Positions 1-46,725 of a stretch of DNA of 46,725 nt are shown one piece after another. The DNA is from a virus (lineage: Duplodnaviria; Caudoviricetes). Location of the stretch: positions 1-46,725 of IMG/VR virus record IMGVR_UViG_3300046062_000033; one strand, given 5' to 3'. The notes under the pieces are model-generated. The model saw nothing but the letters and a program-made list of their open reading frames with translations, was not told the origin of the DNA and ran no database searches. Position 1 is the first letter of the stretch. Each line of letters opens with the position of its first letter. The translations under genes were made by a program, and so were the position numbers.

Positions 1-98
1 CACCCACTTCCCGCCGCACGAATGCTATGTCGAAGCGTTCGCGGGGGGGGGGGCAGGGGTGCTCTACCACAAACCCCGGTCGAAGGTCGAAGTCTATA
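1..98. repeat. Terminal direct repeat, copy 1 (circularisation overlap)
   Basis: Identical to 46630-46725 except that the G tract is G11 here (43-53) and G9 there (46672-46680). Confidence 0.95.
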
Positions 99-763
99 AC
101 GACATAGCCGGCGGTGTGTGGAACTTTTTCGACGTCTTCGTTCGACGCACCGACGACCTCATCGACCGGCTTGACGACGTGTATCACGCGAAGGCTCAAT
201 ACGACGAATGGACCGACACGATCCCGGACGACGACGTCGAACGGGCCGCCCGGTTCTTCTTTTTCCGGTATGCGAACTGGGGGTCGAAGTTAGACCCCGC
301 CGGCTTCCGGCGTATGACGCACCGAAGCGTCGCCGACAACTTCCGCGACGCCGTCGACGCGCTCCCCGACAAGGCCGACCGCTTACACGGCGTCACGATC
401 GACCGGTTAGATTGGGCCGAATGCGTCGACAAATACGACGGCGACGACACGCTGTTCTATTTCGACCCGCCGTACGTCGCCGCCGGCGACGACCTGTACG
501 CCCACGACGACGACTTCGACCACGGCCGATTCGCCGACCGGCTACACGATATCGACGGCGATTGGGTCGTGTCGCTCGAACGCGTCCCCGACAGCTTCCC
601 TGAATACGACGCCGAAGCCACACGGGACACGAAAGACCGCGTGTCGAACGGACAAGAACCCGACCCGACGGAACGAACCGAACGGCTTTGTATGAGCTTC
701 GACCCCGCCGAACGCGCCCGGTTTACCGCCGCCGACCAAGCGTCGGTCGACGCGTTCAGATAA
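1..763 (+). CDS. Dam-like (D12 class) DNA adenine methyltransferase, main part; the gene starts at 46571 across the junction (~273 aa)
   Basis: YVEAFAGGGAGV SAM-binding motif I, EVYND, and catalytic FYFDPPY. In frame through G11. Ends in PIP-like DQASVDAF. Confidence 0.92.
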   Translation, partial: THFPPHECYVEAFAGGGAGVLYHKPRSKVEVYNDIAGGVWNFFDVFVRRTDDLIDRLDDVYHAKAQYDEWTDTIPDDDVERAARFFFFRYANWGSKLDPAGFRRMTHRSVADNFRDAVDALPDKADRLHGVTIDRLDWAECVDKYDGDDTLFYFDPPYVAAGDDLYAHDDDFDHGRFADRLHDIDGDWVVSLERVPDSFPEYDAEATRDTKDRVSNGQEPDPTERTERLCMSFDPAERARFTAADQASVDAFR

Positions 764-3000: not shown

Positions 3001-3782
3001 GTGACGCCGAAAGAATACCGGGAGCAAGCCGCGCATTCGGCTTGTGTTGATATATATAGCGTGGGGGGGGCGGCCCTTCGCCCCGGTATTATTGGCCGTT
3101 CAAGTTGGAACACGTCGGAACGGCACGGATGGGGACGCGAGAAACGTGCGACGTCTACATGATGGATAGCGGGATACGGAACGACGATATTACGAACGAA
3201 GACGTGTTAGACGCTGCCGAAACGTACGGCGCGGATTACGTTATTCCGAAAGATTATTTGAATGACCAATATAAAACGACGCAAAGCGTACACGAATTTC
3301 TTGACATATATCGATCGCATTCGTGCGACGCGGAGTATCTGATACCATTACAACCGCCGCACGACAGGCACTTCGAAGATTTCAAACAGTACGATACGTT
3401 CGCCTTGGGCGGTATCGCGAAGAAGCCGCCGTCGGCGCAACTCGATTATATACGGAAGTTCCGCGACGTGGCGGGCGACGACGTCTATGTTCACATCCTG
3501 GGGTTGGGGGCAAGCCGGGAATTGATCGACGCCTTTCGAACCGATCCGGGGTTTGTTGACAGTATCGATACGTCGACGCCCGTGAACGCCCCGAAGCATG
3601 GGGAAATACCCGACGCGACGTTCATACAGAACCGACAGAAGTTCCAAATCCCGGCGGGTGATGGGTCGTCGACGGGACACGCGATAGCGTGCGAATTCAT
3701 CTTATGGGAAATGGCACAGATGCTAAACCCGGATTGGTCGTCGGCCGAAGATAAAAACCAATCGGGGTTAACCGACTTCTAA
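3001..3782 (+). CDS. TGT-fold (DpdA-like) guanine transglycosylase, frameshifted at a G8 tract (3063-3070)
   Basis: Motifs MDSG, PKD, IPLQ, ALGG, VHILGLG and DSIDTSTP. The N-terminus (GTG 3001, MTPKEYRE...DIYSV) is in another frame, and the catalytic frame is closed by TAG at 3057-3059. G6 or G9 would fuse the two. Ends in PIP-like NQSGLTDF. Lower GC than the flanks. Confidence 0.8.
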
Positions 3783-4255
3783 TGCCGACGCACGTGATCG
3801 TCGGGTGCGGCAAATCCAAACGGGACGGCCCGACCGAAGCCCGCGACCTATACACCGCGAACTACCGAAAACCGATTAAGAAATACGCCCGTGTCGTCGG
3901 CGACTTCGACTATATCTTTAGCGCCAAGCACGGTATCATTCCCGGCGACCTTGTTATCGAACCGTATGACGTTCGTGCGTCGGACGTCCCCGACGACGTC
4001 TTGCGCGACCGGGTCGACGACACCATCGACGACGGCGGTCCCGGTAATAGGTGGTCGCGTGTCGATCGCGTGGTCGTGTGTGCCGGGATGGATTACGTCG
4101 AACCGACCCGCGACATTTTCGAAGACCGCATCGACGCCGACGCCGACTTCCCGTTTCAGGACGTCGAGGGGATGGTCGGGAACGGGGCACAAGCGGCGTG
4201 GTGTAAGCAACGGGTCGCCGACGTGACGAACGCGGGTGTCGACGAGTATTTGTAG
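3782..4255 (+). CDS. DUF6884/YaaA-like protein
   Basis: IVGCGKSK...ARDLYT...IFSAKHG...IEPYD signature; translationally coupled to the TGT-like gene. Confidence 0.75.
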   Translation: MPTHVIVGCGKSKRDGPTEARDLYTANYRKPIKKYARVVGDFDYIFSAKHGIIPGDLVIEPYDVRASDVPDDVLRDRVDDTIDDGGPGNRWSRVDRVVVCAGMDYVEPTRDIFEDRIDADADFPFQDVEGMVGNGAQAAWCKQRVADVTNAGVDEYL

Positions 4256-18834: not shown

Positions 18835-18976
18835 GCGGTCCGCACGCCGGCCGTGACGCCGTCCGTCTTCGCCCGGGCCGTGTGGGTCGGCCGGGACGAC
18901 GAACGGCGTCACGGACCACTCACGGCGTGTGGTGCGACCGGGATGTTTTTGCCACCGCGCCGCCGACCGTTCGGGT

Positions 18977-19396
18977 ATGGCCGACGGCACCCCGAACGTC
19001 GACGCTCCGGACGGCTTCGACGTCGGCACGATCGACGACGCGGTCGTCGACGAATCGAAGACGACGACCGTGTGGGTGACGGACGACGACGCCGGCGTCG
19101 CCTATTGGTTCGAAATGAAAGCGGACGTGCCGCTCCGGAAGAAAAACGACGTGCTTGAACGGAACCTGACGACCGAACAGGGCCCGGACGGGGACCCTCG
19201 ACAGAACCTGTCGTCGGATTATTACACCGATTTGATCGAGTACATGGTCGTCGACTGGTTCGGGGCCGACGAGGATAACGACGACGTGCCGTCGCTCACC
19301 GTGTTCCTGAACAAAATGTCGGCGGTCTTTGAAGACTTGCAAGACGAAGTGCCGCCGCCGTTCGAATCGCTCCCCGACGGCGAACGAAAAAAATAA
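18977..19396 (+). CDS. Tail assembly chaperone (G)
   Basis: Lies between tube and tape measure; ends CGA AAA AAA TAA. Confidence 0.8.
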   Translation: MADGTPNVDAPDGFDVGTIDDAVVDESKTTTVWVTDDDAGVAYWFEMKADVPLRKKNDVLERNLTTEQGPDGDPRQNLSSDYYTDLIEYMVVDWFGADEDNDDVPSLTVFLNKMSAVFEDLQDEVPPPFESLPDGERKK

Positions 19397-27671: not shown

Positions 27672-27830
27672 GAACGAAGGTGCCAAGCCCGGGCGTGTGA
27701 GTATGTCGGTGATATTTTTCCGGCGCGTGTGTGTGTGTTCGGCGTTCGAAGCGGTGGGGTGGGAGCGGCCGGAAGCGGTAATCGCACGAAGGCGGGGCGA
27801 AGCCCCGCCAAGGGGTCGGTTCCCGACCCC

Positions 27831-27852
27831 CTTACTTACTTACTTACTTACT
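27831..27852. repeat. (CTTA)5 tandem repeat in an AT-rich intergenic region
   Basis: cttacttacttacttacttact. Confidence 0.85.
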
Positions 27853-28055: not shown

Positions 28056-28802
28056 ATGGTCGTGGTTGGGACTGTACAACCAGGCGGGCGAATAGATCCC
28101 GAGGTGTGGGAACGGTTCAAATCATTCGTCGAAGAAAAGCACGGACGGACGCGGGGAGTGACCGGTAATGAATTAGAAAAAGCCCTTACTAACCACATGA
28201 GCGGGCAGAATCCGACCGAACCGATTCACCGGATCGAAAACGACGTGGCGACGATGAAGTCAAAACTGGCCCGTCTCGAAGACGCACTTTCGGAAACTGA
28301 CGGCGGCGACGTCGTGGCCGACCCGGGGGGCCCCCATCCCCCTCCGAACCCCGACACACACACACGCGCCGATATCAAGCGTGCGTGTCGTGACGACGAC
28401 CGACCCGACGGCGGCGAGGACGCCACCGACCGATCGAAGCCCGACGCACGGGCCCCGAAGGCCGATAAAGCGGAATACATCTTCGAAGACCTGAACGTCG
28501 ACGGGATCGTCACGTCGCCGAGGGTCTTCGATACGAAGGTGTCGAAGGCGTGGGGGTTCGGCGACCGGGCGACCGACGACATTCGCGAACGGATATTCGA
28601 GGCGTATCACGCCGAAGCGGTATCGACCGACGGGTCGTGTTGGCACGTCGCGGTCGGGAAGACCGAAGCCGACCGGGACGACGGTATCGATGATTGGATA
28701 GCCGGCCAAGAAGTCGCGGAAGACGACGTTGTTTTCGTCTCCGAAGCTAACTTCGAGGGGTTCGATACGAACGGCGTGCCGAACGGGGTGAAAAAGCGTT
28801 AG
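28056..28802 (+). CDS. Protein with an N-terminal RHH/CopG-like DNA-binding domain and coiled coil
   Basis: RIDPEVWERFKSFVEEKHGRTRGVTGNELEKAL; directly downstream of the palindromes. Confidence 0.65.
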   Translation: MVVVGTVQPGGRIDPEVWERFKSFVEEKHGRTRGVTGNELEKALTNHMSGQNPTEPIHRIENDVATMKSKLARLEDALSETDGGDVVADPGGPHPPPNPDTHTRADIKRACRDDDRPDGGEDATDRSKPDARAPKADKAEYIFEDLNVDGIVTSPRVFDTKVSKAWGFGDRATDDIRERIFEAYHAEAVSTDGSCWHVAVGKTEADRDDGIDDWIAGQEVAEDDVVFVSEANFEGFDTNGVPNGVKKR

Positions 28803-28830: not shown

Positions 28831-29400
28831 TCACTCGGCGATGTTGACGACCGCGATGCCGTCGGGGTCGGTGACGACGATCGGCGACGTCACCGACGGC
28901 GTCCGATCCATCCCGACGAAGACGGTCCGGGTGTCGACGGGGACGCGACCGACGGCCGCAACGTCGACCAACACGATGCAGTTCGACGGAACGGCGTCGA
29001 CCCGTTCGACGAGATACCCGTCGATCGCCGGCAGGAACGGGTCGGCCGCGTCGGCGTTGTCGTACGCGGCGGCGTCGTCGCATCGGTCGGCGGCGGTGTC
29101 GCCGGCGAAGAACGCCGCCCCATCCGGCTGTCCGTCGACTTCGTCGCCGTACAGGTCGGTCTTGGACAGGCCGGTCGACGCGTAGCCGTTCTGCCCGAGC
29201 CGGTGGAGTGCGTCGCGGAGGTGTCGGACGTCGAAGCTGTCGACGAAGGCTTCGGTCGCCGCGCCGTCGATGATGGTGTGCCACATGGCCGACCGCATGG
29301 CCGTCCCGACGTCGTCGTCGAACGACGTGACGAGCGATTCGGCGGGCGGGTCGACGTCGGTCGCGGCCAAGAAGTCGTGGAAGGTGTCGTCACCCGTCAT
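28831..29400 (-). CDS. Hypothetical protein, possibly resembling an HK97/encapsulin A-domain
   Basis: ATG overlaps the TFB stop; IDGYLVERVDAVPSNCIVLVD and DPDGIAVV. Confidence 0.6.
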   Translation of the reverse strand: MTGDDTFHDFLAATDVDPPAESLVTSFDDDVGTAMRSAMWHTIIDGAATEAFVDSFDVRHLRDALHRLGQNGYASTGLSKTDLYGDEVDGQPDGAAFFAGDTAADRCDDAAAYDNADAADPFLPAIDGYLVERVDAVPSNCIVLVDVAAVGRVPVDTRTVFVGMDRTPSVTSPIVVTDPDGIAVVNIAE

Positions 29401-30449
29401 GGGCCGACGCCTTCGGACACTAAGCGGTCGATCAAATAATCGCGGTCGGGTGTCATGCCGACGTCGACGTCGTGGTCGGCGGCGAGTTGTTTCAGGTCGT
29501 TGTAGGCGACGTCGTCGAATCGGGTGCGGTCGCGCCACTCGCGAACGTCGGTCACGCGGTTTACGACGGTCGATTTCGACACGCCGGCCGTGTCCGCGAC
29601 GTCGGTTTGGGAGACGTCGACGCGGGCGTCGGTCGCGGCGACGTAAACGACGCCGGCGGCGACGCCGGTCGGGTCGGTGCCGTCGACGAAGCCGGCGTCG
29701 GCGTCGATCGCGGCGTCGACGACGCCGACGGCGTCGGCCCGTACCCGGGCGGGCAGGCCGTCGATGCGGTCGCATAGGTCGTTCACCGCTGCCGTGATGG
29801 CGTCGGGGTCGCCGGGGGCGACGGCGTCGTCGCGACAGGCAAGGACGTCGCGGTACTGGTTTCGAACTGTCGTGACGACGACGTTCGCAGCGGCGGCGAC
29901 GTCGTCCTGTTCGACGTCGGCGTTCCGGTAGGTCGACGTTGCATAGACGACCGCTGCCGCGAATCCCGAGACGGATTTGCCGACGTGGACGCCGGCGGCG
30001 ACGGCGTCGTGGCACACCGCGACGGCGTCGGTTTCGAACGCGGGGTCGACGTCCAGGTCGTCGCAAATCCGTCGGACCCAGTCGGCCGGGTCTTCGGGTT
30101 CGACGGTGTAGGGAAGCGCCGAAAGTACGCGGTGGTAGATCGACACGACGGCGTCTTCGTCGACGTCGCGGTCGACGGGGTCGACGACGTCGGCGGGCTT
30201 GGTCGGAATGTCGCGAACGCGGGCTGCCGCGTAGACGGCTGCCGGGAACGCCGCTGCCGGGTAGCGTCGGGCGTCGCCGCTGAAGCGGCCGGCGCCGTCG
30301 CGTTCGGGCCCGGCGGCGATCACGCCGGCCTCGACGGCGTGGTCGAAGCACGTGACGGCCATGTCGCCGATCGTGTCGTCGAACCCGGCGTCGCGGGCGA
30401 TCCGCCGGAGGACTGTTGCGTACTCGTCGTCGGTCGCCGGTCGTGGCAT
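29397..30449 (-). CDS. tfb: TFB/TFIIB-like protein with three cyclin repeats and no Zn ribbon
   Basis: AAVYAAAR; GKSVSGFAAAVVY...EQDDVAAAANVVVTTVRNQY; GTDPTGVAAGVVY...SQTDVADTAGVSKSTV. Confidence 0.88.
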   Translation of the reverse strand: MPRPATDDEYATVLRRIARDAGFDDTIGDMAVTCFDHAVEAGVIAAGPERDGAGRFSGDARRYPAAAFPAAVYAAARVRDIPTKPADVVDPVDRDVDEDAVVSIYHRVLSALPYTVEPEDPADWVRRICDDLDVDPAFETDAVAVCHDAVAAGVHVGKSVSGFAAAVVYATSTYRNADVEQDDVAAAANVVVTTVRNQYRDVLACRDDAVAPGDPDAITAAVNDLCDRIDGLPARVRADAVGVVDAAIDADAGFVDGTDPTGVAAGVVYVAATDARVDVSQTDVADTAGVSKSTVVNRVTDVREWRDRTRFDDVAYNDLKQLAADHDVDVGMTPDRDYLIDRLVSEGVGP

Positions 30450-30534
30450 GACGGTCGACGGTAGGCGGACCGGCGGGAAAAGTATGTCGCTACTACACCA
30501 ACACATCGTATCACAAAACGGATAGAAGACACGA

Positions 30535-30553
30535 ACCGGCATTCTATGCCGGT
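30535..30553. promoter_or_regulatory. Perfect 8-bp inverted repeat in the divergent promoter region
   Basis: ACCGGCAT-TCT-ATGCCGGT. Confidence 0.45.
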
Positions 30554-34226: not shown

Positions 34227-35030
34227 ATGCCAGACTCACACCACGACACGGCGGTCGAAACGATCGTCGACGCCGACCTATGGACTGCCGTTTGCGACGG
34301 CGTCAACGGGATCGCGTCCCGACCCGAAGCGGCGTTCGAATTCGACAACGACGGGCTTCGCGTCCGGGTGCGGGAAGCCGCGAACGTCGCGATGATCGCC
34401 CAAACCGTCCCGGCCGACGCGTTCGACCACTACACGGTCGACGGCGACGTCACGATCGGGCTCAACACCGACACGTTCGCCGACCTCTTGGGCGTCGCCG
34501 ACGGCGACGACCCCGTCGCGTTCGATTTGAACGCCGAAACCCGGAAACTCGAATTCGAATCGCGCGGCGTCGAATACGACCTCGCCGGCATCAACCCGGA
34601 CGCGATGACCGGGACGCCGACCGACGTCCCGGCGGTCGACGACGAGTACGCGTGGACGATCGACGTCGACCTACCGGTCGAGTTGTGGGATCGCGGCACC
34701 GACGTCGCCGACCTTGCCGGGAGCGACACCGGGACGTTCGTCTACGACCCGGACACCGGCGACGTCGTGCTGGAAGGGGCGGGCGATACCGACGCGTCGC
34801 GGGTCGTGCTGTCGGACGCCGACGCGTTCGCGTGGCGGGACGGCCCGCCCGACGACCGCGTCGAATGCGTACAGTCGAACGACTATATGCCGAGCGTGAT
34901 CGACGTGATCGACGAAGACGTCGTGCGCTTCGTCACCGGCACGGAACTCCCGTATCACGTCTTCACCGAGCGGGCCGACGGCCGGATCGACACGAAATTA
35001 CTACAAGCCCCCCGGATCACCAGCGGGTAA
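34227..35030 (+). CDS. pcn: PCNA sliding clamp
   Basis: GLRVRVREAANVAM, AFDHY, IGLN and ETRKL, plus C-terminal LQAPRI, all matching haloarchaeal PCNA. Confidence 0.9.
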   Translation: MPDSHHDTAVETIVDADLWTAVCDGVNGIASRPEAAFEFDNDGLRVRVREAANVAMIAQTVPADAFDHYTVDGDVTIGLNTDTFADLLGVADGDDPVAFDLNAETRKLEFESRGVEYDLAGINPDAMTGTPTDVPAVDDEYAWTIDVDLPVELWDRGTDVADLAGSDTGTFVYDPDTGDVVLEGAGDTDASRVVLSDADAFAWRDGPPDDRVECVQSNDYMPSVIDVIDEDVVRFVTGTELPYHVFTERADGRIDTKLLQAPRITSG

Positions 35031-42615: not shown

Positions 42616-43176
42616 ATGCGAACCCTCACCGCGTTCGACGTCGACACCGACGCGCTCGCCGACACGTTCGACCGGATGGCCGACGGGCTTCGGTCCGACG
42701 ACGTCCTGGTCGAACGCCTCGAATCCGGACACGTCGCCGACGCCGGCGACCACAGCGAATTCCGGTTCGACATGGAATTCAAAACGACGCACGGCTTCGT
42801 CGACGTCACCGACCCGATAGCATACGACGCAAACCACTACCTTCGCTTCACCGACGACCGCGTCACCCCGATCCTGTCGGGAGAAAAGTTCGCGACGGTT
42901 CGCGTCGGCTTCGAACGCGACTTCGACGTCGGCGACGTCGTCGACCTCATCGACGACGACCGCGACAAATTCGCCGACGCGACCATTGAGTCGATCCGGC
43001 AGGCATCAATTCTTGAACTGTCTAACGACCTTCGCGGGGTATCGGCGACGTCGATGCAGCAACTTATCCGAACGCTGAACGACCATTACGACGACGTCGA
43101 CAAGCGAACGACCGCGACCGCGTTCCGGTTCCAGGTCCGGGACGGGCCCGACAACCCGGACGGGAGCGACGAATGA
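42616..43176 (+). CDS. ASCH-domain protein
   Basis: LRF...PILSGEKFATVR...FDVGD...FADATI in the C-terminal half. Confidence 0.8.
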   Translation: MRTLTAFDVDTDALADTFDRMADGLRSDDVLVERLESGHVADAGDHSEFRFDMEFKTTHGFVDVTDPIAYDANHYLRFTDDRVTPILSGEKFATVRVGFERDFDVGDVVDLIDDDRDKFADATIESIRQASILELSNDLRGVSATSMQQLIRTLNDHYDDVDKRTTATAFRFQVRDGPDNPDGSDE

Positions 43177-44930: not shown

Positions 44931-45445
44931 TGCCCTCGACCCACCAATCCGGTCGCGACACCGAGTACCCGACCGACGCCCACCGCATGATCGCCACGAA
45001 AAACGACCTCACGATCGCGGCGCTAATCAGGGGGATTCGGGACCCCGACCGGGCACAGGCGTACATCGACGCGGAAATCGAGGTAGCCGACGCCGACGAC
45101 CGCGACGTCCGAAAGTCCATAATCGGGGCGTGCAACCGACGGAAGATCGCGTTATCGGACGCACACGCCGGCGTGACCGACGCCGGCGCCGACGCGGGCG
45201 ATACTCCGGCCGGCGACGCGGACGACGACACGGCGGCACACGACCGGCCTAACGGCGACGACAGCGACGATGCCGACGACCCGTACCCGGGCGCCCCTCG
45301 GTTCGACTCGAAGCGCGCGCTGTCGACGGCGGTCGCCGGCCACGACCACGCCGGCGTGTTCACCGTCGCAAAACCCGTCGGGACGGTCGCCGGGTGCGTC
45401 GACTGTGACACCTATATCGGCGTCGACCCCCGCGACGACGACTAA
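44930..45445 (+). CDS. Hypothetical protein
   Basis: TAATG overlaps at both ends. Confidence 0.6.
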   Translation: MPSTHQSGRDTEYPTDAHRMIATKNDLTIAALIRGIRDPDRAQAYIDAEIEVADADDRDVRKSIIGACNRRKIALSDAHAGVTDAGADAGDTPAGDADDDTAAHDRPNGDDSDDADDPYPGAPRFDSKRALSTAVAGHDHAGVFTVAKPVGTVAGCVDCDTYIGVDPRDDD

Positions 45446-46512
45446 TGCCGGCGACCACGCCCGACGGGATACCGCTCACGCCCGACGTCCCCGACGCGCT
45501 CGCGACGCCACCCGGCGTCCCCCGCGACACGACGACGTGGATCGGTGACCGCCCGAGCGAATCCGACGGCGACCGTCTACGGTATGCCCTGTTCTCCGGC
45601 GGGGACGATTCGCTATCGATGGTTCACCACGTCATGTCGCGAATGGACGCCGATGCCGTCCTGTACCTGAACACGAACACGGGGCTTGCGGACACCTATC
45701 GATACGTCGTCGACGTCTGCCGCCGGTTCGAGTGGCCCCTCCGCGTCGAACGGTCGCCCGTGTCGCTCGCCGAACTCGGCATGACGTACGGGTTCCCCGG
45801 GTCGGCGTACCACACCGTCGCCTACGCCTACTTGAAGGAACGGCAACTGTCGGCGATCGCGGGCGAATACGACGGCCCGCCGACCTACGTCACGGGCGTT
45901 CGGAAGCACGAATCCGACCGGCGAATGACGACCGTGCCCGACGACCGCCGGTCGACCGGGGAGGGCGGTCGGTGGACGTGGGTGCAACCGATCCGGGGAT
46001 GGACCGACGGCGACGTCGTCGACTACCGCGAGTGCCACGGCTTGCCCCGGAACCCGGTCGCGGCGGCGATGCACCGGTCGGGTGACTGTTACTGTGGGGC
46101 GTTCGCCCACCGCGACGAACTCCTCGTCGACCTCCGGTCGAACGGGTACGACCGCCACGCGACGTGGCTGTTGGCCGTCGAAGCCCGCGTCCAAATCTAT
46201 CGCGGGCGGCTCGCGGTATTCGAACGCCGGTACCCGGACGAATGGGCGGCCGTCGACGACCGTCGCGACGACTGTACCCCGAAGCCGATGCGGCTCTCGG
46301 TCGCCCGCGAGGTGGCCCCCGACGCCGCCGCCGACATTGACGCGATCGGTCGCGACGACGCCCTCGCCGTCGGTCGTGACGACGCACGAAACTATTGGGG
46401 ACACGGCGATATGGCGAACGACGAACTCCGGGCGCTGGTCGCCGAACACGACGTCGGACAGGCCGAATTATGCCAGTTCTGCGACGGCGGCGGTGGTCGC
46501 CCCGACGAGTAG
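45445..46512 (+). CDS. PAPS reductase-family (PP-loop) protein
   Basis: FSGGDDS PP-loop, TGVRKHESDRR, PIRGWT..DV and SGDCYCGAF. Confidence 0.88.
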   Translation: MPATTPDGIPLTPDVPDALATPPGVPRDTTTWIGDRPSESDGDRLRYALFSGGDDSLSMVHHVMSRMDADAVLYLNTNTGLADTYRYVVDVCRRFEWPLRVERSPVSLAELGMTYGFPGSAYHTVAYAYLKERQLSAIAGEYDGPPTYVTGVRKHESDRRMTTVPDDRRSTGEGGRWTWVQPIRGWTDGDVVDYRECHGLPRNPVAAAMHRSGDCYCGAFAHRDELLVDLRSNGYDRHATWLLAVEARVQIYRGRLAVFERRYPDEWAAVDDRRDDCTPKPMRLSVAREVAPDAAADIDAIGRDDALAVGRDDARNYWGHGDMANDELRALVAEHDVGQAELCQFCDGGGGRPDE

Positions 46513-46570: not shown

Positions 46571-46725
46571 ATGGCGAACGGGTTTTTCCCATACCCGGGC
46601 GGCAAAGCCCAATACGCCGAGTGGATATACACCCACTTCCCGCCGCACGAATGCTATGTCGAAGCGTTCGCGGGGGGGGGCAGGGGTGCTCTACCACAAA
46701 CCCCGGTCGAAGGTCGAAGTCTATA
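46571..46725 (+). CDS. 5' end of the Dam-like methyltransferase; this copy has G9 and is out of frame
   Basis: MANGFFPYPGGKAQYAEWI...YVEAFAG (motif X and motif I). With G9 the frame reads ...SL and then meets TA(A) at the window end. Confidence 0.88.
   Translation, partial: MANGFFPYPGGKAQYAEWIYTHFPPHECYVEAFAGGGRGALPQTPVEGRSL
46630..46725. repeat. Terminal direct repeat, copy 2
   Basis: Matches 1-98 minus two Gs. Confidence 0.95.

Follow-up and report, generated by a model that had tools for sequence, protein, structure and literature searches.

Whether a run of G in a viral gene is a switch, a scar of gene loss or a sequencing error is the question raised by a locus at positions 3,001 to 3,782 of a 46,725-base virus record (65% G+C), the whole of which was analysed and is called the window here. 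At this locus, a gene resembling the DpdA and TGT enzymes is divided between two reading frames at eight consecutive G. A preliminary description had called it off-frame as assembled and had paired it with another G run in a methyltransferase gene. We examined the frames, the homologues, the predicted protein and the run lengths in turn, and we consider a pair of reversible switches the probable explanation.

The record, from a virus of salt-loving archaea, encodes a terminase, portal, protease and tail tube in a Pfam scan, and its capsid protein is 51% identical to that of halovirus HHTV-2. Among the sequencing runs that contain it, the best is from a halite metagenome, which may be where it originated. 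Its ends overlap: positions 1-98 equal 46630-46725 except for the length of a G run, 11 versus 9. Other features include a TFIIB-repeat protein at 29397-30542 on the minus strand (PF00382, E 1e-23) and a PCNA-like protein at 34227-35030 on the plus strand (PF00705, E 1e-07). Across the whole window, CTAG (1 seen versus 30 expected), CCGCGG (1 versus 48) and GGATCC (0 versus 8.5) are strongly avoided. A cluster of short repeats in a gene-poor stretch, (GT)6 at 27727-27738, (CTTA)5 at 27831-27850 and (AC)6 at 28354-28365, is a possible origin or regulatory region. An A7 at 19387-19393 ends the frame 18929-19396, between the tail tube and probable tape-measure genes, at the same place as the annotated tail-chaperone frameshifts of HCTV-2 and HRTV-29.

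A gene divided at a G run

On the plus strand, the frame that begins at GTG 3001 enters the G8 run at 3063-3070 and stops after 53 codons, so that the G8 allele has a truncated product of 53 residues (3001-3162). Its first 21 codons (3001-3063) encode an N-terminal helix and a conserved first strand. The catalytic frame (3060-3782, 240 codons) is closed by TAG 3057-3059, then runs open to TAA 3782; it encodes a TIM barrel with no zinc site, as frames, fold and profiles indicate. When the run was set in silico to between 5 and 13 G, only G6, G9 and G12 gave long products from 3001 (259, 260 and 261 residues). All the coordinates in the preliminary description check out, as does its expectation of a single protein of ~ 260 residues from G9 or G6, to which G12 can be added; the locus is one frameshifted gene of TGT/DpdA fold, split at G8. 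For a GTG TTG pair in the third frame (3044-3049) to continue into the catalytic frame, the run would have to be G7 or G10, the latter giving 246 residues; this pair is the start called in a close relative (P0001/P0019). The same G8 is found in a Logan contig of run X1, a second assembly, probably of the same sample, which is unbroken over 1,601 bases at a depth of 10.1; the site is covered by this one run, as contigs rather than reads, and runs X2 and X3 reach neither this gene nor the methyltransferase run. Directly downstream, a DUF6884 (YaaA-like) gene at 3782-4255 on the plus strand (PF21818, E 2e-17), whose ATG overlaps the DpdA-like stop, is the likely partner.

The homologues show where the gene begins. 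The segment of 21 residues ahead of the run has gapless alignments to the three closest full-length homologues (P0003, P0004 and P0005) just before their catalytic domains, and none of 500 shuffles did as well in any of the three. Against seven more distant homologues, the best two comparisons were equalled by 12 and 29 of 500 shuffles, and the other five gave no meaningful match. We infer from its conservation that this segment contributes a strand of the barrel. Across 124 family members, a median of 30 residues precede the conserved proline. Only two members have fewer than 18, and both keep the strand encoded before the run; the homologues do not begin at the position of TTG 3105, a case that the preliminary description had named as counting against it. 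Because homologues carry the N-terminal segment, starts at TTG 3105 or ATG 3129 would leave out segments that they possess and would give no normal protein, and both were rejected. All 12 of the more distant genes with available DNA are open across the run region, with longest G runs there of 3-5, so the long run is particular to the lineage of the window.

The family is large, exceeding 200 clusters (239 with E no higher than 0.001). Two intact homologues (P0004 and P0006) have a loop of three or four glycines at the run position, and their DNA may carry in-frame G runs. Five members (P0278, P0297, P0313, P0342 and P0393) share their called start, an internal position, with the truncated call of the window; frameshifts, contig edges and miscalled starts are all possible causes. 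Two loci (L006 and L007) each hold two TGT-like homologues, ~ 1.6 kb apart. Gene callers truncate genes of this kind, as in P0002, which is started 53 residues late, and switches are therefore easily missed.

The predicted enzyme and its likely partner

A structural model of the catalytic frame (pLDDT 82.8) was compared with 48,161 chains. The best match was bacterial DpdA 7ui4 (Z 15.7, rmsd 4.0, 219 residues aligned), followed at ranks 2-4 by archaeal TGT (Z 14.9), bacterial TGT (14.5) and QTRT2 (13.0); unrelated TIM barrels scored Z 12.9 and below, close beneath the TGT matches. Sequence profiles agree weakly. The DpdA profile NF041059 gave E 0.007, with 15 bits versus a cut-off of 200; PF01702 matched 4 of 17 family members (best E 0.00045); and the top three hits of a PDB sequence search were 7ui4 and two TGT chains, at a weak E of 0.6-0.8. 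The homologue P0006 falls in an Atlas cluster where PF23859 DpdA is found on 17% of members with a score of 0.94, the recognition value being below the tool threshold. DUF6610 (PF20314, DpdA4; PMC10516641) matched one of the 17 members, at E 0.1, and the window protein not at all; one supplement file of that paper holds no entry for HRTV-29.

All 17 of these members keep three aspartates, a glutamine, a GG pair and a histidine, with D36, D65, G117, G118 and D170 (numbered in the 3060 frame) invariant. The active site of DpdA is reported to comprise D95, D130, the nucleophile D256 and G206-G207 (PMC10164549). The GG pair and D170 align to G206-G207 and D256 of 7ui4, though the match is weak (E 0.63) and the numbering assumes a 20-residue tag offset, and D36 and D65 are equated with D95 and D130 by motif order only. 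The structural zinc site described as conserved in the bacterial DpdA family (PMC10164549) has no counterpart here: the motif CxCxxC...H is absent from the window protein and from all 124 family members. We predict from the modelled fold that the gene at 3001-3782 encodes a small DNA-guanine transglycosylase of DpdA/TGT type.

DUF6884, described by Pfam as a probable DNA-binding, base-flipping protein (PMC11701544), is fused to the TGT-like domain in three homologues (P0003-P0005). No QueC match was found in the virus genome, no FolE or Que family was found among the 87 frames scanned with Pfam, and no DpdB or DpdC partner was recognised in the scanned frames of the genome. Given the missing QueC match, the 7-deazaguanine precursor would be host-made. 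Phages with a stand-alone dpdA are described as weakly modified (7-11) or unmodified (Orion) (PMC6884629), so activity of the window enzyme is not assured; in the literature consulted we found no demonstrated DNA modification by a member of its family. The gene has 54% G+C, against 65% for the genome, and is absent from the complete relative whose terminase is closest (83% identity), which is consistent with a recently gained cassette.

Run lengths in relatives, in the methyltransferase gene and by chance

One relative, known as protein only (P0001/P0019), is 87% identical to the window protein and is called from the third-frame start. With G10 and read from 3044, the window gives 246 residues, the length of P0019, and 213 of the 246 are identical without a gap; other run lengths give 7-21 identical positions. 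In the first 28 residues, the single difference between window and P0019 would be silent in the true frame but is not so in the third. The relative therefore appears to carry G10, which would be off-frame in the direction opposite to the G8 of the window, and the two lineages appear to sit one base either side of G9; the G10 allele is deduced from predicted proteins in one Logan and one JGI entry, which may be one sample. No in-frame (G9) allele of the gene was seen, both close lineages being off. Scans with the window protein found no relative among viral sequences, two distant Halorientalis genes among genomes, and at least eight loci among metagenomes, all of them distant among the matches listed. 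Two DNA patterns for the gene of the relative returned one unrelated match and none, respectively.

The 32 differences between the two lineages are unevenly placed: one falls at the 54 conserved positions and 31 at the 181 others (Fisher p 0.0015 with conservation defined at a 70% threshold; p 0.004-0.010 at three other thresholds). The lineages keep 49 and 50 of the 54 conserved columns. The differences avoid conserved columns, which shows that the catalytic frame has been under purifying selection, and the pattern is unlike that of a long-dead pseudogene.

The second run lies in a gene that reaches across the end overlap, from ATG 46571 to 763. Its 5' part (46571-46725, plus strand) contains G9 at 46672-46680, which is out of frame and gives 51 residues, and the remainder (1-763, plus strand) contains G11 at 43-53, which is in frame and gives 273 residues from ATG 46571; G8 and G11 both give products of 272-273 residues. 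The tract is variable in length, in support of the preliminary description, and is open at the start of the record and broken in the overlapping end. The Logan assembly also has G9, on a 167-base contig at a depth of 3.66 versus 10.1 alongside, or about one third; G11 did not appear in the stretch of that assembly that was compared. By its profiles and motifs, the gene is a Dam-family (D12 class) adenine methyltransferase: PHROG 56 matches at E 6e-41 and TIGR00571 at E 2e-10, the latter below its cut-off, Pfam and TIGR scores are below cut-offs on the partial frame, and motif I and the DPPY motif are present. GATC occurs at 1.11 times expectation, which is uninformative on the target.

The methyltransferases of four isolated haloviruses all encode the same motif with G runs of 2-4. 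We also selected, from other viruses, 13 Dam-like genes that have a G run at the motif, and six were shifted exactly there, with frequencies of 0/4 at G6, 1/2 at G8 and 5/7 at G9-11; none of the 13 was left out, and L048 is counted as unshifted, though interrupted later. The six (L038, L041, L042, L045, L046 and L050), from unrelated viruses, are +1 at G8-G11 in motif I. All six shifts being +1 could come from an error process, and the survey favours lengthened runs; the pattern suggests either a recurring switch or a recurring error. L048 is in frame at G6, is then interrupted by extra sequence with stops, and then resumes. Two short related methyltransferases (P0027/P0143) start after the motif with a different N-terminus and were left out of the counts. 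Near the methyltransferase are a weak ASCH-domain gene at 42616-43176 and, directly upstream, a PAPS-reductase-domain gene at 45445-46512. A PAPS-reductase-like gene is also found in HRTV-29 and near the L010 homologue; the gene here, which has no long run, is possibly a third modification function.

A list of every homopolymer in the window with at least 6 bases contains just three that reach 8: G11 at 43-53, G8 at 3063-3070 and G9 at 46672-46680. C runs do not go beyond 6 bases, and A and T runs reach at most 7. This agrees with the by-eye impression in the preliminary description that the two modification genes hold the only G runs of this length, the methyltransferase tract being present twice, and the list contains no equally long G run in an unrelated gene. 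Markov simulations trained on the window (150 for each order) produced G/C runs of at least 8 at a mean of 1.33 per simulation for order 2 and 0.48 for order 4, with two or more such runs in 39% and 9% of simulations. By count alone the runs are only weakly beyond chance, and the count is not significant under the Markov models. No G/C run of 8 or more was found in the 273 kb of six related or gene-sharing halovirus sequences, namely G001, G003, G004, HRTV-29 and, for HCTV-2 (54 kb) and HHTV-2 (53 kb), the first 50 kb of each. The probability that both run events fall in the window's share of window plus controls is ~ 0.02 by hand calculation. The two modification genes make up 3.4% of the genome, and the probability of both runs lying inside them is ~ 0.001, a post hoc figure that is weakened by both sites being glycine-rich motifs.

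A probable reversible switch and its alternatives

We think it probable that the two G runs act as ON/OFF switches for two DNA-modification genes, flipped reversibly by slipped-strand mispairing. As in simple-sequence contingency loci, the length of the focal run sets the frame, and the rest of the gene is intact and selected (1/54 versus 31/181). For the methyltransferase run, two lengths, G9 and G11, stand in one record; for the focal run the sample has G8 only, and G10 is deduced from the protein of the relative. Slipped-strand mispairing during replication would add or remove one G at 3063-3070. With G9 the whole 260-residue enzyme would be made (ON), while G8 and G10 would give stubs of 53-56 residues (OFF). 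Judging from its fold and residues, the ON enzyme would excise guanine and insert host-derived 7-deazaguanine, and translation of the DUF6884 partner may fall when the upstream frame breaks. The outcome would be a form of bet-hedging, in which marked DNA resists ordinary restriction enzymes and unmarked DNA escapes modified-base defences. Together with the methyltransferase switch, up to four marking states could arise, and the four genome-modification states put forward in the preliminary description are a reasonable prediction. A stronger version, in which the Dam-like gene and a minimal zinc-free DpdA-like gene with its DUF6884 partner switch independently and each lineage throws four marked genome types, we regard as possible but tentative, and somewhat doubtful.

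Several published systems bear on such selection. Phage HK243 is reported to escape the Dag1 glycosylase through a dpdA mutation and to become cuttable by restriction enzymes (10.1101/2025.10.29.685425), a trade-off that offers a precedent for selection on both states. END nucleases are described as acting on phages with modified G (PMC12191111). In haloarchaea, Mrr of H. volcanii is reported to act on GATC-methylated DNA and reduce its uptake; Mrr homologues are described as patchy among haloarchaea, and their distribution is reported to show no anticorrelation with Dam-like genes (PMC6471742). A haloarchaeal defence targeting deazaguanine was not found in the literature consulted.

Among the alternatives, one-way loss at a mutational hotspot seems unlikely: a dispensable gene, its glycine loop spelled by chance as a G run, would have been lost recently in each of two lineages by a slip, with reversal possible but playing no part in the life of the virus. 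Both close lineages are off and none is on, the closest complete relative by terminase does without the gene, the run count is not significant under the Markov models, and GGG is already 30% of glycine codons (244/826). Long runs may simply be tolerated, both lying in glycine-rich motifs of dispensable genes. Loss would, however, require two independent and very recent events at one site, in opposite directions and with no further decay; GGG-GGG is rare (2 of the 91 codon pairs for Gly-Gly across the genes that were counted), and a second modification gene carries such a run too, at two lengths within one record. Homopolymers are error-prone in sequencing, which raises the less probable case that the true run is G9, the gene is intact and the methyltransferase lengths are low-depth read errors. 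A depth of ~ 10, two assemblies that probably share reads, and the uniform +1 direction of all six shifted methyltransferases in other viruses would fit such an artefact. Against it, two assemblers agree on G8 over 1,601 gapless bases, the JGI and Logan entries of the relative are both shifted the opposite way, and a two-base difference at about a third of the depth probably exceeds what ordinary short-read error would produce.

To two further explanations we give little weight. Recoding, by which G8 would work and full-length enzyme would be made at a low level through -1 ribosomal frameshifting on G-GGG-GGG or transcriptional slippage, is very improbable. The heptamer is formally a perfect slippery site in the upstream frame, a -1 shift from it reaches the catalytic frame, and purifying selection on an off-frame gene fits; a G-C hairpin at 3067-3084 overlaps the run but starts inside it, and no stimulatory structure was found where one would normally lie, the stretch 3074-3133 being no more stably folded than its shuffles (z +0.79). 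Recoding would also need the opposite shift in the relative and leaves the two methyltransferase run lengths unexplained. Slightly more improbable still is that the G10 allele of the relative is translated from the third-frame GTG or TTG, leaving only the lineage of the window broken. That frame does give 246 residues with a hydrophobic stretch at the place of the first strand, and three homologues (P0175, L004 and L008) begin at the first strand without the helix; yet there is no sign of internal start use, the single difference in this region would leave the protein of the original frame unchanged but alters that of the third, and a change in run length would still be required.

Comparison with known systems

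The closest structural counterpart of the window protein, bacterial DpdA 7ui4, shares an alignable GG motif and nucleophile aspartate with it; it differs in size (~ 416 versus 260 residues) and in having the zinc motif. The only named phage homologue is gp33 of HRTV-29, annotated as DpdA (MZ334526, Dpdavirus) and homologous over the full length (probability 100%, E 2e-42). It is stand-alone and adjoins gp32, annotated as YaaA, as DUF6884 does here, and the authors who described it suggest that preQ0 is supplied by the host (PMC8651126). Unlike the window gene, to which it is ~ 30% identical, gp33 is intact, its longest 5' G run is 4 and the gene order is reversed; its activity is predicted.

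If the DpdA-like gene is indeed switched, marking with 7-deazaguanine would be costly enough to favour random shut-off, which would in turn point to an undescribed modification-dependent defence in haloarchaea. Were both switches real and independent, no earlier contingency locus would have been described for an archaeal virus or for 7-deazaguanine DNA modification, and a haloarchaeal defence against deazaguanine-marked DNA would be implied. G9 and G8 would also form a natural ON/OFF pair for probing the uncharacterised DpdA-like family and its DUF6884 partner. A full-text literature search, with most subscription papers outside it, found no contingency locus described for archaeal viruses or for dpdA genes.

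Viral contingency loci are reported to have been named only in 2025 and tested in coliphages. The nearest parallel is the agt locus of phage T2, where A runs slip by +/-1 and opposite host defences select each state (Gomez, Barrick, Waters 2025, PMC12633550). There, as proposed here, a homopolymer in a viral DNA-modification gene switches the mark by +/-1 slips; T2 differs in using A runs in a glucosyltransferase gene of an A+T-rich bacteriophage with more than 100 such runs, whereas the window, from a G+C-rich archaeal virus, has no long runs besides its two of G, and its DpdA-like gene is known from sequence alone. Coding G runs of similar length are known from the receptor-binding genes of Fletchervirus (poly-G 7-11; Sorensen 2021) and from BPP-1, where the poly-G lies in a methylase gene (Liu 2004), both as cited in PMC12633550; these are bacteriophages, with no archaeal host and no 7-deazaguanine enzyme. 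Coding-run switches on viral modification genes are already known in bacteriophages, and the case of an archaeal virus with a DpdA-like gene, if it is a switch, appears to be new in the literature searched.
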